NCBI GenBank assembly: GCA_934096275.1
Contig: CAKOLK010000002.1
Location: forward strand, 43,784-107,783
Source: an uncultured Bacilli bacterium
Lineage (GTDB): Bacteria; Bacillota_I; Bacilli_A; RF39; UBA660
Direction: 5' to 3'
Length of the DNA: 64,000 nt
Of this stretch, positions 1-52,279 are shown piece by piece. Positions within the stretch are counted from its first letter, which is position 1. Each line of letters opens with the position of its first letter. The notes under the pieces were generated by a model that made no database searches, had not been told where the DNA came from, and saw only the letters and a list, made by a program, of their open reading frames with translations. The translations under genes and the position numbers were made by a program.

Positions 1-2028
1 AAAAATTTTGATGAAACTCTAGATGAGCCTGTTGTTTTACCTAGTAGATTTCCTAATATTTTAGTTAATGGGACTATGGGTATTGCTGTTGGTATGGCTA
101 CTAATATACCACCACATAATTTAGGTGAGGTTATTGATGGTTGTGTTGCTTATATTGATAATCCTGATATTGATACTTTAGGTTTAATGCAACATATAAA
201 GGGTCCCGATTTTCCTACTGGAGGAATTATTCTTGGTAATTCAGGTATTATGAGGGCTTATCAAACTGGTAAAGGTACAATTACTATTAGAAGTAAGGCA
301 GAAATAGTTGAAAATGGTAATCATTCTAGTATAGTTGTTACTGAAGTTCCATATGGTGTTAATACCATGGATTTAAAAAATAGAGTTGCTGAGCTTGTCA
401 GGGATAAGGTTATTGAAGGTATTTCTGATTATCATACTGATTTAAAGAATGGTGTTAAGATTACTATTACCTTAAAGAGAGATGCAAATCCTCAAGTTGT
501 ACTTAACAATTTATACAAACATACTAATTTTCAAATTAGCTATGGTATAACTTTGTTGATGATTGATGGAAAGACTCCTAGAACATTAGGATTAAAGGAT
601 ATTATATCTAAATATATAGATCATCAAATGGAAGTTATTATAAGAAGAACTAAGTTTGATTTAGAAAAAGATGAAAAACGTGTTCATATTTTAGAAGGTT
701 ATAAAATTGCACAAGATAATATTGATGAAGTTATTAAGATTATTAAAGCTGCTAAGAGTGATGTTGAAGCAAAAGAAAAATTAATGGATCGATTTGGTCT
801 TACTGATGTGCAAACTGATGCTATTTTAGAATTGAAATTACGTCGTTTAACTGGATTAGAACGTGAAAAGATTGAAGCTGAATTGCAAGCATTATTACTT
901 GAAATTGAGGAATTAAAATCTATTTTAGCTAGTAATGAAAAGGTTCTTGCAATTATCAAGAAGGAAATGTTAGAAATTAAGGCTAGATTTGCAGATGAAA
1001 GAAGAACTTCAATTGATATGACTGCTATTGATTATATTGAGGATGAATCGTTAATACCTGTTGAAAACATTATGATTTCTCTTACAGAAAAAGGTTATAT
1101 TAAGAGATTGTTAACAAGTACATACAGATCACAAAATCGTGGTGGTGTTGGTATTAAAGGTATGTCTACTAATGAAGAAGATTTTGTTAGTAAGTTAGTT
1201 ACATGTTCTACACATGATCATATATTATTTTTTACTAATTTTGGTAAAGTATATAGGATAAAAGGTTATGAAATACCTGAATCTAGTAGACAATCTAAGG
1301 GATTACCTATTGTTAATTTATTACCTTTGGAAAAAGGTGAAATTGTTAACTCAATTATTCCAATTAATCCTAATGATGTTGATGATAGTAAGAGTTTGAT
1401 ATTCTTTACTATGGGTGGTCTTGTTAAGAGAACTCCAATAAGTGAGTTTGAATCTATTAGAAAGAATGGTAAAATTGCTATTACTCTTAAGGAAGATGAT
1501 GAGTTGATTAGTGTTAAAATGACGTCTGGTAATGATGAAGTTATTATGGCTTCTAATAGTGGAAGAATGGTTCGTTTTGTGGAAACTGAGGTTCGTATGA
1601 TGGGTCGTAGTGCTTCTGGTGTTAAGGGTATTGATTTAACTGATTCTAAGGTAATTGGAGCAGAAATTGTAAATCCTAATGAATATATTTTAGTGGTAAC
1701 AGAAAATGGTTATGGTAAGAAAACCGATGTTGGTGAATATAGACTTACTCATCGTGGTAGTAAGGGCGTAAAAGCGCTTAATATTACTGATAAAAATGGT
1801 TTAATTATTGCATTTAAATCTGTTATTGGGGACGAAGATTTAATTATTACAACAAATAATGGTATTGTTATTAGACTTGATGTTTCTAAGATTTCTACTT
1901 TGAAGAGAAATACGCAAGGTGTTAGATTGATGAGTCTTAAAGATGGTCAGGTTGTTACTTCTGTTACTGTAACTGAAAAGGTTGACGAAGATTTAGAAAA
2001 TACCGAATCTAAAGAAAATGATGCTTAG
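1..2028 (+). CDS. gyrA: DNA gyrase subunit A, 5'-truncated by the window edge
   Basis: Frame 1 is open from base 1. Translation contains [11 protein letters not shown] and the repeated C-terminal beta-pinwheel blades. Stop TAG at 2026-2028. Confidence 0.97.
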
Positions 2029-2118
2029 GCATTATTTTTTTTATTATTTACAAAACAAATGTTTGTTATTCGCAATTTTATAGTTTTTTGTAAATTGTTA
2101 ATAAGTGTTATTTTTCAA

Positions 2119-2134
2119 TGTTTCACGTGAAACT
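2119..2134. promoter_or_regulatory. parS (ParB/Spo0J binding site), one terminal mismatch
   Basis: TGTTTCACGTGAAACT versus the B. subtilis parS consensus TGTTNCACGTGAAACA. Intergenic. Confidence 0.7.
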
Positions 2135-2331
2135 TTATGTCAATATGTTATTAAATTTTAAATAGAATTATTTTAAGTTTGATTTATTTTGTTTATATTA
2201 ACTTAATTAATTATATTTTTATTTTGCTTTTTACATAAGTTATATATTAGTTTATAGTATTTGTTTTTTAATATGTATAGTTACAATCTTAAAACTTTTA
2301 ATTTAAAATTGTTAATAAATATTTTTTTCAA

Positions 2332-2347
2332 TGTTTCACGTGAAACA
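2332..2347. promoter_or_regulatory. parS, perfect palindrome
   Basis: TGTTTCACGTGAAACA. The palindrome extends to caatg...cattg and abuts the -35 of the SRP RNA promoter. Confidence 0.8.
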
Positions 2348-2351
2348 TTGA

Positions 2352-2378
2352 TTGACTATTTTGATTTTTTGTTATAAT
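2352..2378 (+). promoter_or_regulatory. Putative sigma-A promoter of the SRP RNA
   Basis: TTGACT (2352-2357) and an extended -10, tgtTATAAT (2370-2378). The 15-nt spacer is short. Confidence 0.5.
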
Positions 2379-2384
2379 ATATAT

Positions 2385-2462
2385 TTGTGCAACGCATATG
2401 ATTGAATTAGGTCAGGATCGGAAGATAGCAGCCTTAAAGTCCTCTGTGTGTGTGCACTTTTT
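2385..2462 (+). ncRNA. ffs: Small (4.5S-type) signal recognition particle RNA
   Basis: Contains the conserved SRP domain IV sequence aGGTCAGGatCGGAAGatAGCAGCC with a GGAA tetraloop. The 5' gtgca (2387-2391) pairs with the 3' tgcac (2453-2457). A T-run follows at 2458-2465. Ends are approximate. Confidence 0.8.
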
Positions 2463-2475
2463 TTTGGAGGTTTTT

Positions 2476-2916
2476 ATGTCATTAAAGAATGATAAGTATT
2501 ACTTTAATTTAGCATTGAAGGAAGCGAAAAGGGCAACAAAATCAAATAATGTTCCGATTGGTTGTGTTATTGTTTTTAATAACAGAGTGATTGCTAAAGC
2601 ATATAATAAAAAGAATAGTAAGAACGTTTCAATTTATCATGCTGAGATATTGGCAATGATAAAAGCATGTAGATTTTTAAATACATTTATTTTAGAAGAT
2701 TGTACTATGTATGTAACTTTAGAACCTTGTAAAATGTGTATGAATGCCATAGCTGAATCACGTATTAGAAATGTTAAGTATTTGATTTTTTCTAGATATG
2801 GAAATAATTTAAAAAGCAATTATGATCGTATTAAATGTAACCAATATTCTAATAATGAATATATAGATGAATATAGTGATATGTTATCACAATTTTTTAA
2901 GAATGTAAGAAGTTAA
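2476..2916 (+). CDS. tadA: tRNA-specific adenosine deaminase
   Basis: Has the CDA-fold motifs HAE (YHAEILAM) and PCxxC (LEPCKMC). GGAGG at 2466-2470 precedes ATG 2476. The track ORF start at 2398 would run through the SRP RNA. Confidence 0.9.
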   Translation: MSLKNDKYYFNLALKEAKRATKSNNVPIGCVIVFNNRVIAKAYNKKNSKNVSIYHAEILAMIKACRFLNTFILEDCTMYVTLEPCKMCMNAIAESRIRNVKYLIFSRYGNNLKSNYDRIKCNQYSNNEYIDEYSDMLSQFFKNVRS

Positions 2917-2919
2917 CAA

Positions 2920-2935
2920 TGTTTCACGTGAAACA
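2920..2935. promoter_or_regulatory. parS, perfect palindrome
   Basis: TGTTTCACGTGAAACA, starting 4 nt after the tadA stop codon. Confidence 0.8.
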
Positions 2936-3052
2936 TTAAATAATATTACTATTTATGTTAACTAATATTAATATTCTATGACTTTTACTGTTCATATCTT
3001 TTGATTTGAATTATTAAACTATTTATTTTAAATATAAAATAGTCTTTAAATT

Positions 3053-3066
3053 ATTTCCCGGGAAAT
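3053..3066. promoter_or_regulatory. Noc-binding-site-like palindrome (NBS)
   Basis: ATTTCCCGGGAAAT is identical to the B. subtilis Noc binding consensus. It lies within the 24-nt perfect palindrome aaattatttcccgggaaataattt (3048-3071). Confidence 0.6.
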
Positions 3067-3116
3067 AATTTTGAATAATATGATATTTTTATATTGTTAA
3101 TAACTGTTTTTTTCAA

Positions 3117-3132
3117 TGTTTCACGTGAAACA
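3117..3132. promoter_or_regulatory. parS, perfect palindrome
   Basis: TGTTTCACGTGAAACA at the right end of the 85-bp repeat, copy A. Confidence 0.8.
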
Positions 3133-3257
3133 TAATTTAGTTATTAACATTTTTTGGTTAATAACTTATATATTTTATAAGTTTTGATTGCTATGGTTGA
3201 TTAATTTAATCAATTGATTACAAGAATAGATTATTAAATTATTTGTTTTAAATCCAA

Positions 3258-3273
3258 TGTTTCACGTGAAACA
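3258..3273. promoter_or_regulatory. parS, perfect palindrome with extended arms
   Basis: TGTTTCACGTGAAACA lies inside the 32-nt palindrome aaatccaatgtttcacgtgaaacattggattt (3250-3281). Confidence 0.8.
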
Positions 3274-3380
3274 TTGGATTTAACTTATTAATGAATATTA
3301 TATATTATATGTATTTAATTTTATTTTTTCTTATATGTTTAAAAAAAATATATTATGAATACAAAAATCATCAATAAATT

Positions 3381-3394
3381 ATTTCCCGGGAAAT
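3381..3394. promoter_or_regulatory. Noc-binding-site-like palindrome (NBS)
   Basis: Second identical ATTTCCCGGGAAAT, within the same 24-nt palindrome (3376-3399). Confidence 0.6.
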
Positions 3395-3444
3395 AATTTT
3401 GAATAATATGATATTTTTATATTGTTAATAACTGTTTTTTTCAA

Positions 3445-3460
3445 TGTTTCACGTGAAACA
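3445..3460. promoter_or_regulatory. parS, perfect palindrome
   Basis: TGTTTCACGTGAAACA at the right end of the 85-bp repeat, copy B. Confidence 0.8.
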
Positions 3461-3552
3461 TTGATAACAAAGCTGAAATAATTTTGATATGTCATAGACT
3501 TTATTGCACTAATTTGATACAATATTTGTAGTACTTTTTTGGGGGTGATATT

Positions 3553-5184
3553 ATTACTTATTTAGCTTTATATAGAAAATATAGACCAACTTCTTTTGAA
3601 GAGGTTGCAGGTCAAAGTTCTATTGTGAAAATACTTAAAAATTCTATTGCTAATGGTTGTGTTTCTCATGCTTATTTATTTGCGGGACCTCGAGGAACTG
3701 GCAAGACAAGTTTAGCAAAAATTATCGCTAAAACTATTAATTGTTTTAATTTAAATGGATCTAAATTTTGTAATGAATGTGATAGTTGTGTCTCTTTTAA
3801 TAATAAAAATAATCCTGATATTATTGAAATAGATGCTGCTTCAAATAATGGTGTTGAAGAAATCAGAAAGATTAGAGATAGTGTTAATTTAATGCCTAGT
3901 ATTTCAAAATATAAGGTTTATATTATTGATGAAGTACATATGTTATCTAGTGGAGCTTTTAATGCATTATTAAAAACTCTTGAAGAACCGCCAGCTCATG
4001 TTATTTTTATATTAGCGACTACAGAGTTTTATAAGATTCCAGAAACAATTATATCTAGATGTCAGTGTTTTAATTTTGAACGTATTTCAAATAATGAAAT
4101 TGTTAATAAATTACAATATATTGTTGAATGTGAAAATATTAATATTGATTATAATGTTTTGAATTTGATTGCAAAGTATAGTGATGGAGGTTTAAGAGAT
4201 TCAATTAGTATGCTGGATAAATTAGTTTCTTATTCTAATGAAATCACCGTTGATGATTATTACACTTTGAAGGGTATTGTTAATGATGAATGTCTGGTGT
4301 CGCTTACTAATTACATTTTTAATTGCGATATTCCTAATATATTGAATCTTTTAGAAGAGTTGGAAAATTCAGGCAAAGATGTTGTTGTTTTATTAGATAG
4401 TTTTATGGAACATCTTAAGTCTCGTTTGATTTCACATGATGCTAATAACTTTGATTCTATTTATAATTTAATTATTGAGTTAAATGACTTGGATATATTG
4501 TTAAAAAAGAGTAGTAATAAGAAAATTATTTTTGAGGTAGGAATTATTAAAATTGTTAATAAATTGTTTAAGAATAAAACAAATGTTTGTAATACACAAG
4601 ATATTAATGATTTTGTTGTTCAAAATAAGAAGGTTGTTTCTAATGAAGAAGATGTTGATGATGTCTCTAAAGAGGTAGTTGAAACTTATAAAATATGTTA
4701 TAATAAAGATGTCAGGATTAATAATGCTTTTGCGTTGGCTGATAAGGGTCTTTTGAATGATTTGAGAATAAAGTGGGTTTTATTTTCTGAATCTGTTTCT
4801 AGTCCTGATGATTCTTTGTTTATTTCTTATTTACTTGATAGTACTTTAAGAGTTGCAGGTAAAAATGAATTGATTTTGTCAGTTAAATATGATTCGATTC
4901 TTAAAAATGTTGATAATAATATTTCTGGTATTGAATTAGTATTTAATAATATTATGAATACTAACTATAAACTTGTTTTTATTAGTGATTCTGATTGGGA
5001 AAATCTAAAAAATGAATATATTAAAAATATTAAAAATGGAATTGTTTATAGTTATATTGATGAAGAAGCAAAAAATAGTGATGATGTTGTTTCTTCAGAT
5101 GATAATATTTCTTTTGATAATAGTAGTGATAGTGATGTTTTAGCTACTTCATTGTTTGGAGAAGATATTGTTGAATTAAAATAG
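3553..5184 (+). CDS. dnaX: DNA polymerase III subunit gamma/tau, apparent ATT start
   Basis: Has the Walker A GPRGTGKTS and the clamp-loader boxes. The conserved N-terminus YLALYRKYRPTSFEEVAGQ is in frame upstream of the first canonical start (GTG 3625). The SD GGGGGTGA lies at 3541-3548. The exact start (3550 or 3553) is uncertain. Confidence 0.9.
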   Translation: MTYLALYRKYRPTSFEEVAGQSSIVKILKNSIANGCVSHAYLFAGPRGTGKTSLAKIIAKTINCFNLNGSKFCNECDSCVSFNNKNNPDIIEIDAASNNGVEEIRKIRDSVNLMPSISKYKVYIIDEVHMLSSGAFNALLKTLEEPPAHVIFILATTEFYKIPETIISRCQCFNFERISNNEIVNKLQYIVECENINIDYNVLNLIAKYSDGGLRDSISMLDKLVSYSNEITVDDYYTLKGIVNDECLVSLTNYIFNCDIPNILNLLEELENSGKDVVVLLDSFMEHLKSRLISHDANNFDSIYNLIIELNDLDILLKKSSNKKIIFEVGIIKIVNKLFKNKTNVCNTQDINDFVVQNKKVVSNEEDVDDVSKEVVETYKICYNKDVRINNAFALADKGLLNDLRIKWVLFSESVSSPDDSLFISYLLDSTLRVAGKNELILSVKYDSILKNVDNNISGIELVFNNIMNTNYKLVFISDSDWENLKNEYIKNIKNGIVYSYIDEEAKNSDDVVSSDDNISFDNSSDSDVLATSLFGEDIVELK

Positions 5185-5195
5185 GAGGGATAATT

Positions 5196-5495
5196 ATGAA
5201 TATGCAAGCTTTAATGAAACAAGCGCAAGCTATGCAAAAAGAAATTACGAATATTAAAAATGAAATTGATAATTCTACTTTTGAAGGAAGTAGTTCATTG
5301 GTTAAGGTTGTAGTTAATGGAAAGAAAGAAGTTTTAAGTGTTAAGATTTCTTCTGATGCTACTGATTTAAGTGATGATATTTCTATGTTAGAGGATATGA
5401 TTGTTCTAGCTATGAATGATGCTTTTTTGAAAGTTGACAAGACTACTAATGAAAAAATGGGAAAATATTCTAATATGATGTCAGGATTGATGTGA
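5196..5495 (+). CDS. ybaB: YbaB/EbfC family nucleoid-associated protein
   Basis: About 100 aa, starting MNMQALMKQAQAMQ. Sits in the conserved position between dnaX and recR. Confidence 0.9.
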   Translation: MNMQALMKQAQAMQKEITNIKNEIDNSTFEGSSSLVKVVVNGKKEVLSVKISSDATDLSDDISMLEDMIVLAMNDAFLKVDKTTNEKMGKYSNMMSGLM

Positions 5496-5499
5496 TAAT

Positions 5500-6096
5500 A
5501 TGTATCCAAAGAGTTTATTAGATTTAATTGAATATTTTAAAAAATTTCCCGGGATTGGAGAAAAAACAGCTGAGAGATTAGCCTTTTCTGTTCTCAATTT
5601 TGATGTTGATGAAGTAACTGATTTTAGTAATGCTCTATGTAGTGCTAAAACAAATATCAAACCTTGTAGTGTTTGTGGTATTTTGACGGAAGCTGATTTG
5701 TGTTTTATTTGTAGCGACAATTCACGTGATTGTGATAGTATTTTAGTAGTTGAGAACTCTAAGGATGTATTCTTATTTGAAAAACTTGGAAATTACAATG
5801 GTTATTATCATGTTCTTGGTGGATTGATTTCTCCTCTTGATGAAATTGGTCCTGATGATTTGTCTATTGATTCATTGGTAAGAAGAGTTAAAGAAAAAAA
5901 TATAAAAGAAGTTGTACTTGCTATTAAAACTGGTATAGAAGCTGATACGACTGCTTTATATATAAAAAGGTTATTAGAAAAAGATGGAATAACAGTAACT
6001 AGAATAGCTAATGGTATTCCTATTGGAGCAGATATGGAATATATTGATGTTCTTACATTAGAAACAGCTTTAAATAATAGAAAGGAAGTATTTTAA
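5500..6096 (+). CDS. recR: Recombination protein RecR
   Basis: Has the FPGIGEKTAERL helix-hairpin-helix, a C4 zinc finger (CSVCG...CFIC) and a Toprim domain. Confidence 0.95.
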   Translation: MYPKSLLDLIEYFKKFPGIGEKTAERLAFSVLNFDVDEVTDFSNALCSAKTNIKPCSVCGILTEADLCFICSDNSRDCDSILVVENSKDVFLFEKLGNYNGYYHVLGGLISPLDEIGPDDLSIDSLVRRVKEKNIKEVVLAIKTGIEADTTALYIKRLLEKDGITVTRIANGIPIGADMEYIDVLTLETALNNRKEVF

Positions 6097-6132
6097 TGAA
6101 ATGTAATCATATATTTTTTTGAGGTGTTATTC

Positions 6133-6318
6133 TTGAAAGAAAGATTATATTTTATTGGAAAAAGGCTTCTTTTAGCTCCATTTATAATTTATATATATGA
6201 TTTAATAATGGGGACTTCAGTTTATTTTATTCCAATTAATATTATCACAATTTTGATTGTTGGTTTGTTTGATATTTTTGGATTAATTTTATTGATAGTT
6301 TTATTATTAATTTTATGA
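6133..6318 (+). CDS. bofA: BofA-like small membrane protein (pro-sigma-K processing inhibitor family)
   Basis: Two-TM protein with IPINIITILIVGLFDIFGL, resembling the BofA C-terminal motif. It sits after recR, as in B. subtilis. TTG 6133 follows GAGGTG. Confidence 0.45.
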   Translation: MKERLYFIGKRLLLAPFIIYIYDLIMGTSVYFIPINIITILIVGLFDIFGLILLIVLLLIL

Positions 6319-6322
6319 TGAG

Positions 6323-7234
6323 GTGATAGGCGTGTTAGAAAAATATGAAAAAATACAAAATGTATTTTATAAGTTTATTGTAAATTCTGTTAATAATGGT
6401 CATATTTCTCATGCTTATTTAATTGAAACTAATGGTGTTTCTTATGGATATGATTTAGCTATTTCACTTGCTAAGTTTTTTCTTTGTATTGATAAAGATC
6501 CTATAAAACAAAAGGTAATACTTGATGAGATAGATAAAAATATATATTCTGATTTATATATTATTAATAGCGATGATAACGAAATTAAAAAGAATGATGT
6601 TGCTTTTTTAAAACATGTTTTTTCTTTCAAATCTCAAAATAATAATAAAAGAATTTACATAATCAATAATGCTAATTTACTTAATGTGTCTTCGTCAAAT
6701 ACATTACTTAAGTTTTTAGAAGAACCAGATGATGATATAGTTGCAATTTTAGTGACTGAAAGTAAATATGATTTATTAGATACTATTGTTTCACGTTGTC
6801 AGGTTTTATCATTAATAAATAATGATTCGTTTATTGAAAAGTTAACTTGGAATGATTACGATGAAACTATGGATTATATTGATTTTGTTAATGATAAAAT
6901 TTCTAACATGATTAATTTGTATTTTCTACTAGAATTAAGTGATGTTTTTTTACTTACAAATGAATATATGTATAGTATTAAAAATAATCTTACTAATTTT
7001 TTTCTAGTTGGTCTTGCTTTTTATTATGATGTTTTTAATTTGTATTATGATAGAAAATCTCAATTTATTACTGGTTTTGATGAGCAAAAAATAAAAGTTA
7101 TGAAAAATAATGCAATTAGTGATATAATAAAGAAGATTGATGTAATTAATACATTTATTAATAAATCTAAATCTAATGTTAATAAGGATTTATTGATTGA
7201 TGATTTTACATTTAAGATGTTAGGAGATGATTAG
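6323..7234 (+). CDS. holB: DNA polymerase III delta' subunit
   Basis: Clamp-loader fold with a degenerate P-loop (SHAYL), the LLKFLEEP box and SRCQ. The start could be GTG 6332. Confidence 0.8.
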   Translation: MIGVLEKYEKIQNVFYKFIVNSVNNGHISHAYLIETNGVSYGYDLAISLAKFFLCIDKDPIKQKVILDEIDKNIYSDLYIINSDDNEIKKNDVAFLKHVFSFKSQNNNKRIYIINNANLLNVSSSNTLLKFLEEPDDDIVAILVTESKYDLLDTIVSRCQVLSLINNDSFIEKLTWNDYDETMDYIDFVNDKISNMINLYFLLELSDVFLLTNEYMYSIKNNLTNFFLVGLAFYYDVFNLYYDRKSQFITGFDEQKIKVMKNNAISDIIKKIDVINTFINKSKSNVNKDLLIDDFTFKMLGDD

Positions 7235-8014
7235 ATGGTTGAAGTGTTTGGCGTACGTTTTAATGATTCTAATAAGATATATTATTTTTTACCAAATGGG
7301 AATGAAATAAAAAAAGATGATTATGTTGTGGTTGAAACTGAACGTGGTCAACAATTTGGAGTAATATGTACTGATAAAATTGTTGTTGATAAGAAACGTA
7401 TTTCATTTGAACTTAAAAATATTTTAAAGGTTGCTGATTCTAATGATATTAGTGCTAATGAAAGAAATATTAGAGAAGCAAAAATTGCAATTGAACGTGC
7501 TAATAAGTTTGTTGAAGAATTAGGTTTGGATATGAAAATATTAGATGCATCATTTACTTTTGATCGTTCACAGCTTTTATTTAATTTTTTAGCGGATGCA
7601 AGAGTTGATTTTAGGGAACTTGCTAAGAAACTTGCTTATGTGTATAAGACTAGAATTGAGCTTAGACAAATAGGAGTTCGTGATAAAGCAAAATGTGTTG
7701 GTGGTTATGGAGTTTGTGGTAGAAAATTATGTTGTTCTACGTTTTTGAATGATTTGAATAGTGTTTCTATTAACATGGCTAAGAATCAGAATCTTACGTT
7801 AAATCCTCAAAAAATTAATGGTGTGTGTGGTAGATTAATGTGCTGTTTAGGTTATGAGAATGAATTATATAATGAGTACAAAAAAGATTTTCCTAAAGTA
7901 GGAGAAATTATATCTAATGATTCTTATAAAGGTAAAGTAGTGTATGTAGATTTATTTGAAAAAATGTATAAATTAGAATTAGAAGATGGAAAAATTGTGG
8001 ATGTGATGTTATGA
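7235..8014 (+). CDS. ricT: PSP1-domain protein, stage 0 sporulation/RNase Y regulator RicT (YaaT)
   Basis: PSP1 C-terminal domain with cysteine clusters (CGRKLCC, CGRLMCC). Follows holB, as in Bacillus. Confidence 0.85.
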   Translation: MVEVFGVRFNDSNKIYYFLPNGNEIKKDDYVVVETERGQQFGVICTDKIVVDKKRISFELKNILKVADSNDISANERNIREAKIAIERANKFVEELGLDMKILDASFTFDRSQLLFNFLADARVDFRELAKKLAYVYKTRIELRQIGVRDKAKCVGGYGVCGRKLCCSTFLNDLNSVSINMAKNQNLTLNPQKINGVCGRLMCCLGYENELYNEYKKDFPKVGEIISNDSYKGKVVYVDLFEKMYKLELEDGKIVDVML

Positions 8015-8565
8015 AACTAATTGTTGGTATAGGTAATCCTGGTAAAGAGTATAAAAATACTAGACATAATATTGGTTTTAATGTATTGGATAATTATGCT
8101 TCTTTCCATTCGGTTGAAATTACTAAAGAAAAGTTTAATGGATTGTATGTTGATTTTATTTTGAATGGTGAGAAAATTATTTTATTAAAACCTTTATCAT
8201 ATGTTAATTTATCAGGTGTTGTTGTAAAAAAATATGTTGATTATTTTAATATTTCGGTTGATGATGTTTTAATTATAAGTGATGACTTAGATTTAGATTT
8301 TGGAAAGATTAGACTTCGTTTATCTGGTTCATCTGGAGGGCATAATGGTCTTAAGAGTATTGAAGCAAATCTAGGTACTAAAAATTATAAACGTATGAAG
8401 TTTGGCATTTCTAATAATAGAAGTATTGATACTAAAGATTATGTTTTGGGTAATTTGTCTTCTTTAGAAAATAAAAAACTTAATGAAATATTACCTATTA
8501 CTGTTAATATTTTAGATGATTTCATGGTTATGTCTTTTACTAATTTGATGAATAAATATAATTAG
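8011..8565 (+). CDS. pth: Peptidyl-tRNA hydrolase
   Basis: MKLIVGIGNPGKEY..TRHNIGF signature. Confidence 0.95.
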   Translation: MKLIVGIGNPGKEYKNTRHNIGFNVLDNYASFHSVEITKEKFNGLYVDFILNGEKIILLKPLSYVNLSGVVVKKYVDYFNISVDDVLIISDDLDLDFGKIRLRLSGSSGGHNGLKSIEANLGTKNYKRMKFGISNNRSIDTKDYVLGNLSSLENKKLNEILPITVNILDDFMVMSFTNLMNKYN

Positions 8566-8574
8566 GGTGATACT

Positions 8575-11500
8575 ATGAATGTTTTAGATAAATTAAGTAC
8601 TTTTTCTTATAAAAATGACATTAGTTTATTTGGTTTAACTAATGAGTTTTTTGCTGTTATTATTAATAAGTTTTTTAATAGTATTGAAGATGGTATTTTG
8701 ATTGTTGCTCCAAGTATGTTTGAAGCAAAAAAAATATATGAGGCTATAAACAGATATAATGATAATTGCTTTTTGTTTGAGACTGATAGTTTATCTTTTG
8801 TTAATGCACTTGCTACTAGTCCTATTCTTAAAACAGAGCGACTTTCTGTTTTGAACGAACTTTTAGATAATAAAAAGAGAATTGTTGTTACAGATTTGGT
8901 TGGTTATTTAAAACATCTACCTCCAGTTAATGATTATGCGGATAAAATTATTGAATTATCTGTTGGAGATAGTATTTCTATTGAAACTATTATTACAAGA
9001 CTTGATGATTTGGGATATAAAAGAGAAGATTTAGTTGTAAAGATGGGTGATTTTGCTGTTAGGGGATATATATTAGATATATTTTTGATTGATAGTGATA
9101 ATCCGATAAGAATAGAGTTTTTTGGTGATGATATAGAATCTATCCGTTTTTTTAATTCAGATGATCAAAGATCTATTTCGAATGTTAATTCTATTAAAAT
9201 ATATCCTAATGATGAAATTGATACTAATGAATATGTAAATATTTCATCTTATTTGGGTGATTGTTATAATGTTTTTAAAGATTATAATCAAATTGGTGTT
9301 TCATATAAGAATATGGTTCAAGAGTTTTTTGATTATGGTGATGAACAATCATTGTTTTTTAAATTAGAGGATATTCCATTAAATAAGGTTATATATTATA
9401 ATGATTTTGATAACTATAAACAAAGTAATAATTTTATTGATTTTTGCTGTTCTAATTTAGATTACAATGGAAATGATATTACTTATTTTAATGATTATGT
9501 TAAAAAGCATTTATCTTTGAAAAAGACAATAGTTATTTGTTTGTCTGATAAAAAAAATATTAATGATTTATTTGATTTTCCATATGTTTTGACTGATTTA
9601 AATAATATATTTGATGAAAAAGTAAATATCGTGACTTTTCCTTTAGGAGAGGGTTTTTCTATTGATAATTATATTTTTGTTAGTGAAAAGGAATTGTTTA
9701 ATAAGGTTTTTGTTAAGAAAAGGGCGGTTAAGTTTAAATATTCTAAGAGAATAAATGATATAACAAAACTTGATATTGGTGATTATGTTGTTCATGAAGC
9801 TTGTGGTATTGGTATTTATAATGGTATTAAAACTCTTACTAAAAATGGAGTTTTGAACGATTATATAGAGGTTCTTTATGCAAATGGGGATAAATTATTT
9901 ATTCCTGCTTCTAAAATAGAGTTAATTAGTAAGTTTTCTGGAAAGGAAGGATATGTTCCAAAAGTTAATTCTTTGAATAGTAATGCATGGGAAAAAGCTA
10001 AAAGAAGAGTTAGTCAAAAAATAAAGTATGAGGCTGAAAGACTTCTTAAGGTGCAAGCTGAAAGAAAATTAAAAAAAGGTTTTGCTTTTAGTAAGGATAA
10101 TGAACTTCAAATTATGTTTGATAATGAATTTTCATATGATGCTACTGATGATCAAATTAGGGCTACTATGGAGATAAAAAAAGATATGGAAAGTGATATT
10201 CCAATGGACAGATTGCTTTGTGGTGATGTTGGTTATGGAAAGACTGAAGTTGCTTTTCGAGCTATGTTTAAAGCTGTATTAGACAATAAACAAGTTATGT
10301 ATCTTTGTCCTACTACACTTTTATCTAGACAACAATATATGAGTGCTCTTGCTAGATTCAAAAGTTTTCCTGTTAGAATAGAATTATTAAATAGATTTGT
10401 ATCTTCTAAAAATGCTAAAAGGATAATTGATGATTTCAATAAGGGAAATGTTGATATTTTATTTGGAACTCACAGAATACTTAGTGATGATATTAAACCT
10501 AAAGATTTAGGACTTTTAGTTATTGATGAGGAGCAACGTTTTGGGGTTGCTCATAAAGAAAAAATTAAAGAGTATAAGAGTAATATTGATGTGCTTACTC
10601 TTACTGCAACTCCTATACCTAGAACTTTACAAATGACTATTTTTGGTCTTAAAGATTTGTCTTTGATTGAAACTCCTCCGAAGGATAGGCATGCTGTACA
10701 GACTTATGTACTTGCATTTGATAAAAATATTATTAGGGATATTATTTATAGGGAATTATCACGTGATGGGCAAGTTTTTATATTATATAATAGAGTTGAA
10801 GATATTGAGTCTAAAGTTAGAGAAATACAGATGATTGTTCCTGAAGCTAGAGTTGCTTTTGCGCATGGGAAGATGAATAAAAATGATCTTGAAAATATAA
10901 TGAATGATTTTGTTCTTCATAAATATGATGTTTTAGTATGTACTACTATTATAGAAACTGGTGTTGATATGCCTAATGTTAATACTCTTATTGTTTATAA
11001 TTCTGATTGGTTTGGTCTTAGTCAGTTGTATCAAATAAGAGGTAGGGTTGGTCGTAGTGATAGAATTGCTTATGCTTATTTGACATATGAAAATAATAAA
11101 GTTTTGACTGAAACTTCTATGAAGAGACTTCAAGTACTTAAAGATTTTACAGAACTTGGAAGTGGTTTTACTATCGCTGCACGTGATTTATCAATCAGAG
11201 GTTCTGGTGATATTTTAGGAAGCGAACAAGCTGGTTATATTGATTGTGTTGGTATTGATTTATATATGAAGATGTTAAATGATGAGATTTTAAAATTGAG
11301 GGGAATTGAAGTTTTAGATAAGAATGATGATGTTATTAGTAATGTAGAGGTTACTAGCCATATTTCTGATATTTATACGAACAGTGATGAACTGAAGATT
11401 GAAATTCATAAACTTATAAACAGTATTGATTCCTATGAAAAGTATAACTCAGTTTATAACGAACTTACAGATAGATTTGGTAGGCTTAATGATGATATTA

Positions 11501-47026: not shown

Positions 47027-49522
47027 ATGGCGATTTTAAAAAAGATGATAGATCATGAATACAAAGAACTAAGAAGATTTGAGAAAATTGCAAATCAAAT
47101 CGAAGCACTTGATGAAGAGTATCAAAAATTAAGTGATGAAGAATTAAAAAATAAAACTTTAGAGTTTAAGAAAAGACTTAGTGAAGGGGAAACTTTAGAG
47201 GATATTAAGGTTGAAGCTTTTGCTACTGCTAGAGAAGCATGTTTTAGAGTAATTGGTGAAAAACCTTATCATGTTCAATTGATTGGTGGGCTTGCACTTC
47301 ATTATGGTAATATTGCTGAGATGAAAACTGGGGAAGGAAAAACTCTTACTTCAGTACTTCCTGCTTATCTTAATGCTTTAGGTGGAGAAGGTGTTCATAT
47401 TATTACTGTTAATGAGTATCTTGCTACTCGTGATGCAGAATGGATGGGACAAATTCATAATTTTTTAGGTATTACAGTGGGTCTTAATTTAAGGGATTTA
47501 AATCCTGCGGAAAAAAGAGCTCAATATGATTGTGATATTTTATATTCTACTAATAATGAGATTGGTTTTGATTATTTAAGAGATAATATGGCTATTAGAA
47601 AGGAAGATAGAGTACTTCAAAGAGGGTTGAATTATGCAATAATCGATGAAGTGGATTCTGTTTTAATTGATGAGGCTAGGACTCCTCTTATTATATCTGG
47701 GGGATTTCTTGAAAGTAAGAATCTTTACTTGGAAGCTGATAAGTTTGTTAAGCGTTTAAAGAAGGATAAATCATATACTTATGATGCTAAATTAAAAAGA
47801 GTTAGTCTTACTGATGATGGCGTAAAGGAAGCTGAAGAGTATTTTAAACTTAATAATTTATATGATTTGGATAATGCTACTTTAGTACATTTTATTAATC
47901 AAGCACTTCATGCTAATTATTCAATGAAGAAAGATTTTGATTATGTTGTGCAAGATGGTAAGATTGTAATTGTTGATCAATTTACTGGTCGTTTAATGCC
48001 TGGTAGAGCATTTAGTGATGGACTTCATCAAGCTATTGAAGCCAAGGAAGGTGTTGAAATAGAACAAGAAACTAAGACTCTTGCTACTATTACTTTCCAA
48101 AATTTATTTAGAATGTATAAGAAGCTTTCTGGGATGACTGGTACTGCTAAAACTGAGGAAGAAGAGTTTAGAAATATTTATAATATGTATGTTATAAGTG
48201 TTCCTACTAATAAGAAAGTTATTAGAGATGATATGGCTGATTTAATTTTTGCTAGTAAAAAGTCTAAGCTTAAGGCAATAGTTGATGAAATTGAAAAAAG
48301 ACATAAGACTGGACAACCTGTGTTAGTTGGTACTATTGCTATTGAAGTTAGTGAGGAAATTAGTGATTTGTTAAAGAAGAGAAATATTCCTCATGAAGTT
48401 TTGAATGCTAAGAATCATGCTCGCGAAGCTGAAATTATTGCTAAGGCTGGTGAAAAGGGTTCTGTTACTATTGCTACTAATATGGCTGGACGTGGTACGG
48501 ATATTAAACTTGGTGAAGGTGTAAAGGAACTTGGTGGTCTTTGTGTAATTGGTACTGAAAGACATGAGTCTCGTCGTATTGATAACCAATTACGTGGACG
48601 TTCTGGTAGACAAGGTGATCCTGGTTATTCACAATTTTATATAGCTATGGATGATGATTTAATGACTAGATTTGGTTCTGAAAAGATTAAAAATATATTG
48701 GAAAGTATGGGCGTAGATGATGGTCTTGCTATAAGAAGTAAGGTTTTCTCTAATTCGGTTAAGTCTGCTCAAAAAAGAGTTGAAGGTAATAACTTTGATA
48801 TGAGAAAGAGTGTTCTTCAATATGATGATGTTATGAATAAGCAAAGGGAAATGATTTATAATAAGAGAAATGATATTTTGGATAAGGATAGTATTCATGA
48901 TGAGGTTCTTAAGTCTATGTATAATCATATTGCTGATGTTGTTGAGGCACATTTGGATCAAAATGATAAGTTAAGTGATAGTGATTTGGATGAAGTATTG
49001 GAATATGTTAATTCTAATTTACTTAGAACTGGTATTAATAAACAATCTCTTGATTTGAATGATGTTGATAGTGTTATTAAGACTATTTATGATGTTGTTG
49101 TTAAGGAATATGAAGATAAGATTAAGGATATTCCATCTGAAATTGCTAATGAGTTTGAAAAGGTTATTAGTTTAAATGTTATTGATAAGTATTGGATGGA
49201 ACAAATTAATACTATGTCTCATTTAAAAGAAGGTATATTCTTAAGACAATATGCTCAAGATAATCCACTTAGGGCTTATACTGAAGAAGGATTTGAGTTG
49301 TTTGATGAAATGCTTTCTAATATTGATAAGTTTATTACTTTGTATCTTTTAAGAGCAGAAATTAGACAAAATATTGAAAGAAAAGAAACAATAAAGAATA
49401 AGACTACTAATATTACTGATGATACTCAAAAGGGTCATACTAAGAGAGTTAATAAAGTTGGTAGGAATCAATTGTGTCCTTGTGGCTCAGGACGTAAATA
49501 TAAACAATGTTGTGGTAAATAA
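47027..49522 (+). CDS. secA: Preprotein translocase ATPase SecA
   Basis: DEAD motor motifs (MKTGEGKTL, DEVDS). The C-terminal SEC-C zinc motif is CPCGSGRKYKQCCGK. Confidence 0.97.
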   Translation: MAILKKMIDHEYKELRRFEKIANQIEALDEEYQKLSDEELKNKTLEFKKRLSEGETLEDIKVEAFATAREACFRVIGEKPYHVQLIGGLALHYGNIAEMKTGEGKTLTSVLPAYLNALGGEGVHIITVNEYLATRDAEWMGQIHNFLGITVGLNLRDLNPAEKRAQYDCDILYSTNNEIGFDYLRDNMAIRKEDRVLQRGLNYAIIDEVDSVLIDEARTPLIISGGFLESKNLYLEADKFVKRLKKDKSYTYDAKLKRVSLTDDGVKEAEEYFKLNNLYDLDNATLVHFINQALHANYSMKKDFDYVVQDGKIVIVDQFTGRLMPGRAFSDGLHQAIEAKEGVEIEQETKTLATITFQNLFRMYKKLSGMTGTAKTEEEEFRNIYNMYVISVPTNKKVIRDDMADLIFASKKSKLKAIVDEIEKRHKTGQPVLVGTIAIEVSEEISDLLKKRNIPHEVLNAKNHAREAEIIAKAGEKGSVTIATNMAGRGTDIKLGEGVKELGGLCVIGTERHESRRIDNQLRGRSGRQGDPGYSQFYIAMDDDLMTRFGSEKIKNILESMGVDDGLAIRSKVFSNSVKSAQKRVEGNNFDMRKSVLQYDDVMNKQREMIYNKRNDILDKDSIHDEVLKSMYNHIADVVEAHLDQNDKLSDSDLDEVLEYVNSNLLRTGINKQSLDLNDVDSVIKTIYDVVVKEYEDKIKDIPSEIANEFEKVISLNVIDKYWMEQINTMSHLKEGIFLRQYAQDNPLRAYTEEGFELFDEMLSNIDKFITLYLLRAEIRQNIERKETIKNKTTNITDDTQKGHTKRVNKVGRNQLCPCGSGRKYKQCCGK

Positions 49523-49603
49523 GCTTACAAATCCTTATAAATAAAGGGCTTGCGAGCTTTTTGCTACTTACAATATTTAGGTAATTTTGCATTGAAAAAG
49601 TCG

Positions 49604-49625
49604 TTTAGATAAGTTTTAGATAAGT
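49604..49625 (+). repeat. Tandem 2 x TTTAGATAAGT (left pair)
   Basis: Two abutting 11-mers, 62 nt upstream of the orphan ORF start. Confidence 0.85.
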
Positions 49626-49686
49626 TTTTTGGTAAATTCAACGATATATTAATTATTTATGTTATAATATAAATGGAGGGTAAAAT

Positions 49687-50412
49687 ATGAATAATAATGA
49701 GAATAATAGGACAGTGCAATTGGGAACTCAATTAGCATTTTCATATACTCAAATGGCGAGTGACTATACAAAAAAATTAGTTGATGCTTATAATGCTGCA
49801 TTGATGTTAGAAAGGGATTGGCAAAAACTATCACATTCAAGTGATGCCTTTAGTGAAGTTAGGCCTGATTATTTTCAAACAAGCTTAAAACTGTTCATAA
49901 TTAAATCTTCAGTTTTAGAACAAACAAGATCTACTTACTTAGAACAAATTAGAGGATTAGATGAAAAAAACTTAGGAGAATTAGTTGGTCAAGTCAAGAG
50001 AGTAGTACAGGCTAGAGCACAAGCTTTTAATAATCCTATCCCAGAAACTCAAAGTATCAATGTAAAACAAGAAATTCTTAATATATTTGGTAAACCAGTT
50101 TTAGGGTCAGCTTATTCAGAATTATTTGAATTGTATGTTCAGTCATTATCAGATGAAGAAAAACAAACATTAGCAGCATGTAATACTGAAAAAGCACTAT
50201 TGGATAGTGTTAGAAGTACAAGAAGAACAGGAGAAGATAGGTTTGAGCAAATACATGAACTAAAAATTGAATCAGTTAAAAGAGAGGGATTTGCTTCTAT
50301 TGAAATTCCATCTATTACTTCTACTATAGAAAAGTCTTTAGTTATCGCAACTAATGAATTAAAAAAATTAGATATTGTAAGTCAGCTGGATTCACATCAT
50401 AGATTAGTTTAG
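49687..50412 (+). CDS. Orphan hypothetical protein (241 aa), soluble and predicted helical
   Basis: GGAGGG SD and an extended -10, tgtTATAAT (49660-49668). I recognise no family. Amino-acid usage (Q/E/S/L/R rich) differs from the N/K/I-rich neighbours. Confidence 0.6.
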   Translation: MNNNENNRTVQLGTQLAFSYTQMASDYTKKLVDAYNAALMLERDWQKLSHSSDAFSEVRPDYFQTSLKLFIIKSSVLEQTRSTYLEQIRGLDEKNLGELVGQVKRVVQARAQAFNNPIPETQSINVKQEILNIFGKPVLGSAYSELFELYVQSLSDEEKQTLAACNTEKALLDSVRSTRRTGEDRFEQIHELKIESVKREGFASIEIPSITSTIEKSLVIATNELKKLDIVSQLDSHHRLV

Positions 50413-50428
50413 CATTTAAATCAAATTC

Positions 50429-50451
50429 TTTAGATAAGTTTTTAGATAAGT
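50429..50451 (+). repeat. Tandem 2 x TTTAGATAAGT (right pair, 1-nt spacer)
   Basis: Same 11-mer and same orientation, 17 nt after the orphan ORF stop. Confidence 0.85.
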
Positions 50452-50551
50452 TGTGCGAAAAAACTTGCAATTTATCAACAAAAAATTATAAGTTTTAAAT
50501 AAAAAACACCAATTTAAAAGGAAAAAATTACTTGGTTGTTTTAATATTTTA

Positions 50552-50596
50552 CCATGTGACTCAGGACGTAAATATAAGCAATGTTGTGGTAAATAA
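50552..50596 (+). pseudogene. Displaced relic of the secA 3' end (SEC-C motif codons + stop)
   Basis: 42 of 45 nt are identical to 49478-49522. It reads PCDSGRKYKQCCGK* and nothing upstream of it is secA-like. Confidence 0.85.
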
Positions 50597-50607
50597 AAAT
50601 AAATTAA

Positions 50608-50639
50608 AATGTCGACAAAAGTTTGTTGACATTTTTTTC
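50608..50639 (+). terminator. Rho-independent terminator (probably the ancestral secA terminator)
   Basis: 11-bp stem aatgtcgacaa / ttgttgacatt, aagt loop, then TTTTTT. Confidence 0.8.
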
Positions 50640-50771
50640 TTTTATATTTCTTTTAGTTTTTATAATATTAAAAAACGACTATTGTTTTCAGGAGTGAAAA
50701 TGATTGTTCAATAATTTTAATAATGGTATAATAATTATCATAAATCAATTAAATTATTTGGATAAGGAGGG

Positions 50772-51803
50772 ATGAATATGAAAGATAAATTGATTGGTAA
50801 TGAAAGAAATGTTTTATTTTATAATGATGAAGAAGGTAATACTAAGGTAGAAGTATTATTAGAAAATGAGGATGTATGGTTAAATACAGAAGCATTAGCA
50901 GCGCTTTTTAATATTGATAGAAGTGGAATTGTAAGACATATCAATAATATTTATAAAGATGATGAATTATCTGAAAAGGCAACTTGTGCAAAAATTACAC
51001 AAGTTCAAATTGAAGGAACTCGTGAAGTTAAAAGGGTTTATTCATATTACAATCTTGATGTGATTATTTCTGTTGGTTTTAGGGTTAATTCTAAAAAAGC
51101 AATTAGATTTAGAACATGGGCAAATAAAATAATTAAAGATTATATGGTTCAAGGTTTTGCTTTAAATGATGAGAGATTTTTAAAAGCAAAAAGGTCTGAT
51201 CAAGAATATTTTGAAAGATTGCTTGAAAGAATCAAATTGATTCGTACAAGTGAGAGAATGTTTTATCAAAAAATTACCGACATATTTGCTGAATGTTCTA
51301 TTGATTATGATAAAAATAGTGAAATTGCAATTACTTTTTATAAGACTATTCAAAATAAGTTTCATTATGCAATTACGGGGAATACTGCTGCTGAGATAGT
51401 TTATAATAGGGTTGATTCTAATAAAGATAATATGGGACTTACTACTTGGGAAAATTCCCCCGATGGAAAGATTTTAAAATCTGATGTAGTTATTGCCAAG
51501 AATTATTTAAATGAGAAAGAAATTAAGAGTTTAAATAGTTTAGTTAATTTGTTTTTAGATATTGCTGAAAATAATGCGGAAAGAAATATAACAATGTATA
51601 TGGAGGATTGGAAAAATGAAGTAGAAAATGCTTTAAAAGTTTTCCATTATGAAGTTTTAGAAGGAAAAGGTAAGGTATCTCATAAACAGGCAGTTAAAAA
51701 GGCAGAAAGTGAATATGAAAAATATAGGATTATACAGGACAAAAGTTATGTATCAGATTTTGATAGATTGTTAAATGAAACAAAGAGGATAGAGAATAAA
51801 TGA
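50772..51803 (+). CDS. RhuM-family protein (Virulence_RhuM)
   Basis: The N-terminus ..VEVLLENEDVWLNTEALAALFNIDRSGIVRHINNIY..EL........AKITQVQIEGTREVKR....YNLDVIISVGFRVNSKKAIRFRTWA is characteristic of the family. The true start may be ATG 50778. Confidence 0.8.
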   Translation: MNMKDKLIGNERNVLFYNDEEGNTKVEVLLENEDVWLNTEALAALFNIDRSGIVRHINNIYKDDELSEKATCAKITQVQIEGTREVKRVYSYYNLDVIISVGFRVNSKKAIRFRTWANKIIKDYMVQGFALNDERFLKAKRSDQEYFERLLERIKLIRTSERMFYQKITDIFAECSIDYDKNSEIAITFYKTIQNKFHYAITGNTAAEIVYNRVDSNKDNMGLTTWENSPDGKILKSDVVIAKNYLNEKEIKSLNSLVNLFLDIAENNAERNITMYMEDWKNEVENALKVFHYEVLEGKGKVSHKQAVKKAESEYEKYRIIQDKSYVSDFDRLLNETKRIENK

Positions 51804-51815
51804 TTTGTTTTAATT

Positions 51816-51845: not shown

Positions 51846-51907
51846 TTATTGCTATGATTGTTTTTTTAGATTATAATAAGTGTGTTATTATTTTTCGGAG
51901 GTTTTTT

Positions 51908-52279
51908 ATGTATTGTAGGTTTTGTGGAAAGAAAATTAATAAAAAAGATATTTTTTGTCCTTATTGTGGTAAGTCTTTTTCTAATAAATATATTGTTATA
52001 AGTGGTATTGTTATGTTTATAATGGGTATTTCTTTGGTGTATGGTGTTAGTTTTGATGGATATGATGATAAGATTTTTATGTTTTTAGTACCTGGTATTT
52101 TGTCTATTTTGTCTAGTGTTTGTAAGTTGTTTTGTTTTAAAAGTAATAAGTTTTTCTTGATATCTGGTTGTTTGCTTTTTATTGGAGCTTTATCTAATTT
52201 TATATCGATTATGGATTTGTCTATTTATGCACTTTTATGTGTTATATTTGGTATATTTGATATTATTCATTATAGATAG
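51908..52279 (+). CDS. Zinc-ribbon domain membrane protein (4 TM)
   Basis: MYCRFCGKKI....FCPYCGK is followed by four hydrophobic helices. GGAGG SD. Confidence 0.6.
   Translation: MYCRFCGKKINKKDIFCPYCGKSFSNKYIVISGIVMFIMGISLVYGVSFDGYDDKIFMFLVPGILSILSSVCKLFCFKSNKFFLISGCLLFIGALSNFISIMDLSIYALLCVIFGIFDIIHYR

Follow-up and report, generated by a model that had tools for sequence, protein, structure and literature searches.

The 3′ end of secA as a probable attachment site for compact phage-type gene cassettes in uncultured gut and rumen Bacilli

The temperate phage e14 of Escherichia coli enters the 3′ end of a protein gene, icd, and restores it, using lambda-type attachment (att) sites with arm-type repeats. 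In staphylococci, composite islands of the staphylococcal cassette chromosome (SCC), SCCmec and pseudo-SCC, occupy the 3′ end of rlmH (orfX), and in Streptococcus thermophilus cis-mobilizable elements (CIMEs) reportedly undergo site-specific accretion with the integrative and conjugative elements ICESt1 and ICESt3 at the 3′ end of fda. In this study, we compare with these systems a stretch of 64,000 nucleotides (nt) from an uncultured Bacilli bacterium (contig CAKOLK010000002.1; hereafter the window). Its secA gene (47027..49522, on the forward strand, as are all window features below) encodes 831 amino acids (aa) ending in a SEC-C zinc-binding tail (Pfam SecA_DEAD, SecA_PP_bind, SecA_SW, SEC-C) and is followed by a short cassette carrying a single cargo gene, the 241-aa open reading frame (ORF) ORF241. 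Our sequence comparisons make it very probable that this cassette entered the last codons of secA by site-specific recombination of the phage type, supplying the gene with a new end, and, as part of the same highly probable reading, that lambda-type tyrosine integrases in a clade of uncultured Bacilli from gut and rumen use the SEC-C tail codons as their attB core. The comparative set comprised 80 secA loci with 10-kb flanks, one genome per species; L-numbers denote fetched loci, 215 in total.

The starting point is a repeat. The final 45 nt of secA (49478-49522), CCTTGTGGCTCAGGACGTAAATATAAACAATGTTGTGGTAAATAA, recur in direct orientation at 50552-50596 with 42 of 45 positions identical and a start-to-start distance of 1074 nt. 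The initial annotation of this DNA had described the repeat, and it withstood a search of the 64 kb with three mismatches or fewer, which found the 45-mer at these two sites only, against no match in 100 dinucleotide shuffles. The three differences between the copies (CCT>CCA in a proline codon and AAA>AAG in a lysine codon, both silent, and GGC>GAC, glycine to aspartate) were also as described; the interval between the copies, given as 1032 nt, is 1029 nt (49523-50551). Despite the duplicated 3′ end, the secA reading frame is unbroken and retains the full SEC-C motif. The live tail, PCGSGRKYKQCCGK with its stop codon (49478..49522), would be the attL core, with a probable crossover within CCTTGTGGC (49478-49486), as the repeat, the clustering of breakpoints and the conservation of the core suggest. 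The stranded copy (50552..50596) is the putative attR core, and homology with L001, L002 and L004 stops exactly at its last nucleotide, 50596. As first noted, a strong terminator stands behind this downstream copy (50606-50635 plus a T-run, -13.3 kcal/mol, z = -4.3). Contrary to the initial annotation, the live secA stop does not lack one: an imperfect hairpin (49521-49559, -12.0 kcal/mol) with a U5 run directly follows it. This putative element-supplied terminator of secA (49521..49564) is collinear with hairpins in L001, L034, L046, L054, L056 and the prophage L092, and in relatives it is a conserved part of the element arm (-20.7 kcal/mol in L001).

Where the exchange took place is suggested by pairs of loci that share only one flank. 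Change-point analysis of 55 pairs with the same left and different right flank, and of 16 with the converse, placed 49 of 71 breakpoints within about 10 nt of TGTGG, clustering at CC(A/T)TGTGG at the 5′ edge of the tail; C(A/T)TGTGG is also the best-conserved stretch among 178 unique tail copies, which were detected by their 3′ part only. Between L001 and L004, the cassette is 99.9% identical over 896 nt, and directly beyond CCATGTGGC the tails diverge, with 12 mismatches in 36 positions. Compared with L012, a genome of the same species, the window has 96.0% nucleotide identity in the secA body, 77.8% in the final 36 nt of the tail and unrelated sequence from 22 nt past the stop. Compared with L001, it has 90.5% identity in the cassette and 71.6% in secA. 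The exact crossover thus appears to lie at the left edge of the 45-mer, and the secA sequence from about 49487 on appears to be element-derived; given breakpoints at TGTGG, the last 11-12 codons of the live SecA, the stop codon and the terminator would all be element DNA. Two claims of the initial annotation are strengthened here. Site-specific integration into the secA 3′ end agrees with the in-tail breakpoints, the disparity between cassette and secA identity and the comparison with L012, along with the stacked tail copies and adjacent integrases described below, and a replacement secA end brought by the incoming DNA agrees with the drop from gene body to tail relative to L012.

Every junction examined has the same order over a span of about 300 nt: two direct arm-type repeats, a spacer of about 100-125 nt, the tail core, which is coding sequence, a hairpin with a T-run, a spacer of about 30-45 nt and two to three further arm-type repeats. 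We read this layout as a lambda-type attP split into attL and attR, in which the arm repeats would bind the integrase. The arm motif is shared by both ends of one cassette and differs among cassettes (examples being TTTAGATAAG, TAGATACAG, TAGAACCA, TTGTCCAC, TGTTTCC and ACATACG), such that across 82 unique cassettes the median longest common substring was 13 nt for cognate and 9 nt for non-cognate arms (Mann-Whitney p = 2e-14).

The window follows this plan, with one cassette unit of 1074 nt extending from about 49487 to 50560. It consists of the hairpin, a TTTAGATAAG doublet, its own candidate promoter, ORF241, a second TTTAGATAAG doublet and a P arm of about 100 nt. The P′ arm-type repeats, two copies of TTTAGATAAGTTTT (49604..49628), are identical to the doublet adjoining the integrase of the prophage L092/L093, and the P′ arms of integrase-less cassettes, the window included, align collinearly with the prophage attL. 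The P arm-type repeats, assigned by the cognate-arm test, are TTTAGATAAGTTTT followed by TTTAGATAAGTTGT with one mismatch (50429..50454), and the two tandem doublets flank ORF241 on both sides. Behind them, the P arm spacer (50455..50551) is a module common to cassettes with other cargo; over 50501-50596, identity to the P arms of L186, L099, L097, L095, L100, L001 and others is 80-95%. ORF241 itself (49687..50412) is the only ORF between the two tail copies and is preceded by a candidate extended -10 element, TGTTATAAT (49660-49668), and a Shine-Dalgarno sequence, GGAGG (49675-49679), both read by eye (49660..49679); a consensus promoter scan did not flag this -10. The resemblance to phages of the e14 type is close, in that attP carries the gene end so that the target stays intact, arm repeats surround the core, and an integrase gene can lie beside attL and be transcribed toward it (Int2 in L092, see below). 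It differs in that the window unit is no phage, having one cargo gene and no integrase.

In the mechanism that we propose, a circle would arrive with an attP made up of P arm, tail copy and P′ arm, as the anatomy implies, and strands would be exchanged at or beside CC(A/T)TGTGG at the 5′ edge of the tail. The P′ side of the element would then provide SecA with its last 11-12 codons, stop codon and hairpin terminator, while the earlier tail would be displaced downstream to become the attR core, and repeated events would yield stacked cassettes. An integrase-free route to the same product would be a RecA-dependent swap after DNA uptake, guided by homology in secA, tail or arms as in the minimal mobile elements of Neisseria. 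Usable homology exists, since tail, hairpin and arm modules are 80-95% identical across cassettes with different cargo, and the window has no integrase of its own. However, breakpoints from such swaps should spread across the 150-300 nt of shared sequence, whereas they cluster in a stretch of about 10 nt where the tail begins; moreover, arm motifs co-vary at the two ends of a cassette and two integrase families occur at the junctions. We therefore consider homologous recombination improbable as the source of the cassette.

The site appears to be in wide use among relatives. Scanning with any 33-nt secA tail at seven mismatches or fewer revealed extra tail copies in 12 of the 80 secA loci, always downstream of secA and on the same strand; elsewhere in these loci there were at most two matches, both weak, of which one is on the L059 minus strand and the other upstream of secA in L083. 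In metagenomes, the TTAGATAAG doublet was detected in at least 120 loci; among the first 80 of these, 56 contain the secA tail or a related gene as well, and metagenome arrays contain up to five tails. These data also bear on whether the repeat could be a local duplication, the remains of a decayed gene for a SEC-C-domain protein or an assembly artefact. Misassembly can create short repeats, and several contigs of metagenome-assembled genomes (MAGs) break at the secA tail. Yet the same architecture recurs in many independent assemblies, what lies upstream of the stranded copy is no gene but a P arm that is conserved and non-coding, and contig breaks are what a genuine repeat would be expected to cause. 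This explanation is contradicted by the evidence and we regard it as scarcely credible; an artefact, named at the outset as a possible refutation, does not account for the repeat. Conversely, since the tail is a genuine repeat, it would explain the systematic breakage of MAG contigs at this position. As an observation in its own right, contigs end inside the secA tail or no more than 150 nt past it in L013, L016, L024, L025, L029, L035, L038 and L045.

The initial annotation had proposed to look for empty sites in related strains, which was partly successful. In L012 the site is differently occupied with the breakpoint in the tail, and L040, L044, L047 and L048 have bare stops, with neither arm nor hairpin behind secA; a clean empty site was not found in the window's own species, and the region downstream of secA in L012 showed no clear cassette end. 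Adjacency to prfB, considered as a yardstick for an empty site, was discarded: prfB lies within 10 kb of secA in the window and L019 only.

Two families of tyrosine integrases, Int1 and Int2, are found at the tail junctions. Int1 proteins (412-448 aa) combine Arm-DNA-bind_4 (PF14657), SAM-like (PF14659) and Phage_integrase (PF00589) domains; their genes start about 190-250 nt past the secA stop on the same strand in L020, L022, L028, L036, L037 and L039, follow internal tail copies in L004, L023 and L030, and are accompanied by arms of the TTGTCCAC or TTGACCAC type. A protein search of IMG/VR with Int1 found no relative. Int2 proteins (374-387 aa; PF00589 and PHROG 1) are transcribed toward attL. 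In the IMG/VR prophage L092/L093, with the gene order int, CI-like repressor, cro, recombinase, exonuclease and single-strand binding protein (SSB), Int2 adjoins a tail copy, a hairpin and the exact window doublet, TTTAGATAAGTTTTAGATAAG. In L092 the Int2 gene occupies 2001-3164, and an 86-aa candidate excisionase is encoded at 4668-4928. The TTTAGATAAG doublets of the window are thus those that adjoin Int2 in this prophage, and on this comparison the arms of the window cassette appear to be those of the Int2 family. As the cassette has Int2-family arms and no integrase, its entry, and any exit, would proceed by an integrase supplied in trans, and we infer mobilisation in trans. The attR of the prophage was sought in IMG/VR with an exact P-arm segment, which gave no match; an exact match to the P-arm doublet, in L094, was rejected as a chance match within an unrelated phage gene. 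A further Int2 element, of 9.2 kb, is situated in L113 (reverse complement 180-9460) between a degenerate and an intact tail copy; it holds int, a CI-like repressor, replication genes, an HNH gene, two DNA methyltransferases and putative restriction genes, has TAGAACCA arm doublets and looks like a satellite or defence island more than a full phage.

Placed beside the described systems, the locus has most in common with the ICESt1/ICESt3-CIME group. There, too, a housekeeping gene has its 3′ end targeted and duplicated by elements with tyrosine integrases, att-flanked derivatives without an integrase persist, and integration of new neighbours creates tandem arrays, which in CIME systems can mobilise those derivatives. 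Consistent with this, the window cassette lies between putative att sites and has neither integrase nor transfer genes. Here, however, the target is the SEC-C tail of secA, most units are one-gene cassettes of about 1-2.5 kb flanked by complete arms, as many as five units form an array, and the integrases are phage- or satellite-like rather than conjugative, two families using one core. The SCC islands are similar in stacking cassettes at the 3′ end of a conserved gene, with direct repeats of the gene end in between, and in including units that lack a recombinase and depend on one in trans. They differ in their large serine recombinases (Ccr), simple att sites and size of 20-60 kb, as opposed to tyrosine integrases, arm-type sites and about 1 kb. 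All junction recombinases that we found were of the tyrosine Phage_integrase type, in a survey that included no search aimed at serine recombinases. The locus is therefore known in kind, as regards 3′-end integration with restoration, tandem accretion and att-flanked integrase-less derivatives (CIMEs, pseudo-SCC). The secA target, the compactness of one-gene units and the use of one core by two integrase families appear to be undescribed in the literature that we searched, where secA did not turn up as an attachment site.

Several observations weigh against site-specific integration in trans as the origin of the window cassette. In line with the initial annotation, which had described one orphan 241-aa ORF and no integrase in the insert, tblastn detected no integrase in 49523-50551, nor elsewhere in the 64-kb window. 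The attR core reads TGTGA, whereas TGTGG is present in 97% of tail copies; this rare G>A change may mean that the cassette is now fixed in place, and perhaps no longer excisable. No circular signature was present among the 215 loci, and neither an empty-site nor a circle junction was observed; one candidate circle, L145 with the motif at both ends, proved to be a linear cassette fragment. The P′ region of the window is 81.8% identical to that of L001 and the cargo 90.5%, which is unexpected if P′ always travels with the cargo. Finally, the link between Int2 and TTTAGATAAG comes from one prophage seen in two metagenomes and one related element with TAGAACCA arms.

Some of these points would also suit a different history, in which a full prophage with TTTAGATAAG-type arms was internally deleted in situ, down to its two arms and a terminal moron gene, so that the 1-kb unit was never mobile. 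A prophage with an identical P′ arm does exist, the window has no integrase, its attR core is mutated, and decayed integrase and RhuM remnants are frequent in arrays. On the other hand, the compact unit occurs with the same ends in at least four contexts or hosts (the window, L001/L002, L004 and L005), and independent deletions would not recreate identical boundaries. Nor is it exceptional: the 82 unique cassettes are uniformly compact (median length 1574 nt, the cargo being preceded by a median of 208 nt and followed by one of 174 nt), 47 of them consist of a single gene, and 142 of 148 cassette ORFs are co-oriented with secA. Other 1-kb cassettes are also about 99% identical between different surroundings. 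Nineteen near-identical cassette pairs were found in different contigs; both neighbours differ in four of these and one side in nine, and a NUDIX cassette of 1002 nt is 99.1% identical in L121 and L152 with different neighbours on both sides. Compact size together with near-identical cassettes in different contexts favours insertion and excision at the level of the cassette over independent in-situ prophage decay, which we judge unlikely, though it merits serious attention. The initial annotation had left a choice between an unusually small cassette, a satellite mobilised in trans and a decayed stump; since several hosts and contexts share the compact unit, the stump fits less well than the other two.

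If cassettes do move singly, a broader role comes into view. We tentatively propose, on a case that we find close to balanced yet leaning to doubt, an integron-like platform for gene capture without integron parts, in which cassettes of one or two genes with a complete attP would be inserted, excised and reshuffled singly at secA by the integrases of resident or infecting temperate phages. The cassettes would then be minimal satellites of phage integration, with a cargo that includes spare aminoacyl-tRNA synthetases, acetyltransferases, methyltransferases, nucleases and candidate defence genes. The likeness to integrons, and to clusters of attC sites lacking an integron integrase (CALIN), lies in co-oriented, mostly single-gene cassettes between recombination sites, in identical cassettes shared by different arrays and in arrays without a nearby integrase. 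However, the secA-tail arrays are not an integron, because IntI-type integrase, attI, Pc promoter and folded single-stranded attC are all missing. The cassettes here begin with a terminator hairpin and apparently bring their own promoter (for ORF241, the candidate -10 and Shine-Dalgarno), and their integrases, with Arm-DNA-bind_4, SAM-like and catalytic domains or of phage type, are parts of the arrays themselves, being cassettes or prophage ends. To our knowledge, integrons have not been reported in Gram-positive-type bacteria; compact co-oriented cassettes with intact phage-type arms suggest a route for single-gene capture and exchange in such bacteria.

The cargo as a whole ranges over GNAT acetyltransferases, methyltransferases, MetRS, TyrRS, a class II aminoacyl-tRNA synthetase, a NERD nuclease, phosphoesterases and RhuM. 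As a side observation, several secA-tail cassettes have a full-length extra aminoacyl-tRNA synthetase as their sole cargo (MetRS in L113, TyrRS in L203 and the class II enzyme in L193); such extra enzymes could be spare or inhibitor-resistant copies.

Taken together with the tail comparisons, these findings suggest that mobile DNA very often docks at the zinc-finger codons of SecA across a large clade of uncultured bacteria of gut and rumen, where foreign DNA would routinely encode the final dozen residues of an essential protein. This may have practical application as well, since the repeated tail would account for frequent MAG contig breaks at secA, and a tail copy with arm doublets offers a sequence handle for finding accessory genes in these genomes.

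The cargo of the window cassette gives little indication of its function. ORF241 had no match in Pfam, PADLOC or PHROG, and an exhaustive profile search of 1.84 billion proteins yielded a family of seven cluster representatives. Its AlphaFold model is all-alpha with moderate confidence (pLDDT 63), and a Foldseek search of the model against the PDB returned nothing below E = 0.05, consistent with an orphan protein predicted to be all-helical. The contexts of its homologues are more informative. In the rumen contig L001, a homologue with 85% identity is located just after secA, with a HEPN-domain gene upstream and with the same doublets and a second tail copy flanking; pairing with a HEPN gene is seen in both L001 and L003. 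The ORF241 cassette adjoins a tyrosine-integrase gene in L004 and sits amid other cassettes in L005. In L008 (4320-6000), a homologue with 38% identity lies immediately behind a run of about 12 tRNA genes and a TTTTGATCTTGTTTTTGATCTTGTTT tandem doublet, so this cargo family seems to ride also on a tRNA-site island in another lineage. From these four contexts (L001, L004, L005 and L008), ORF241 is best seen as an accessory gene that travels on integrative DNA. The initial annotation had asked whether further copies of the ORF are always flanked by secA-tail repeats or linked to an integrase; L001 has such a flank and L004 an integrase neighbour, and in L008 the neighbours are tRNA genes.

Downstream of the cassette, the window appears to preserve traces of an earlier occupant. 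The initial annotation had viewed the downstream tail copy and its terminator as the old end of secA stranded by the insertion. Displacement of this copy by the insertion agrees with our results; since the crossover lies at the 5′ edge of the tail, however, the stranded copy would be what preceded the cassette and not the original tail of the species. The sequence between 50561 and the hairpin at 50606 includes TCAGGACGTAAATATAAGC. The hairpin terminator behind the stranded tail (50606..50645) resembles the "...tttgttgacat..." hairpins of L015, L026, L030 and L058; on this slender resemblance it would probably represent the distal hairpin of an older P′ arm of the Int1 type, the arm repeats having since been lost. 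Next follows a RhuM module (50697..51807; gene 50772-51803; Pfam Virulence_RhuM; PADLOC PDC-S05, a candidate defence family), which recurs with 83-84% nucleotide identity and sharp ends in at least six other secA arrays, those of L146, L205, L193, L051, L036 and L030. In L030 and L051, RhuM stands directly behind an integrase and ahead of a tail copy; in the window, the preceding integrase is lost and no tail copy lies behind. We read the window RhuM as the remnant of an older integrase-plus-RhuM element, and its similarity to the L030 and L051 modules would make the window one intact-looking cassette followed by the stump of an older element. Between RhuM and prfB, a 141-aa ORF (51854-52279) encodes a zinc-ribbon membrane protein; it had no nucleotide match in the 215 fetched loci, and no att remnant was detected between it and prfB.

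A last observation concerns the Int1 genes of the arrays. In one subclade, a conserved A-run breaks the Int1 gene exactly where the DNA-binding half (arm and core-binding domains, about 168 aa) gives way to the catalytic domain, at L030:9597-9604, L030 about 13500, L051 about 14110 and L023 about 21370, in L101, L138 and L203, and in L015 and L027. The run is A8 in seven copies, which would need a -1 shift, and A7 in two (L015 and L027), and in none are the halves in frame. We found no report of slippage or frameshifting in tyrosine integrases in the literature searched; the arrangement suggests programmed frameshifting, transcriptional slippage or phase variation of the kind known from IS3-family transposases. 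In more distant Int1 genes, the two halves are contiguous.

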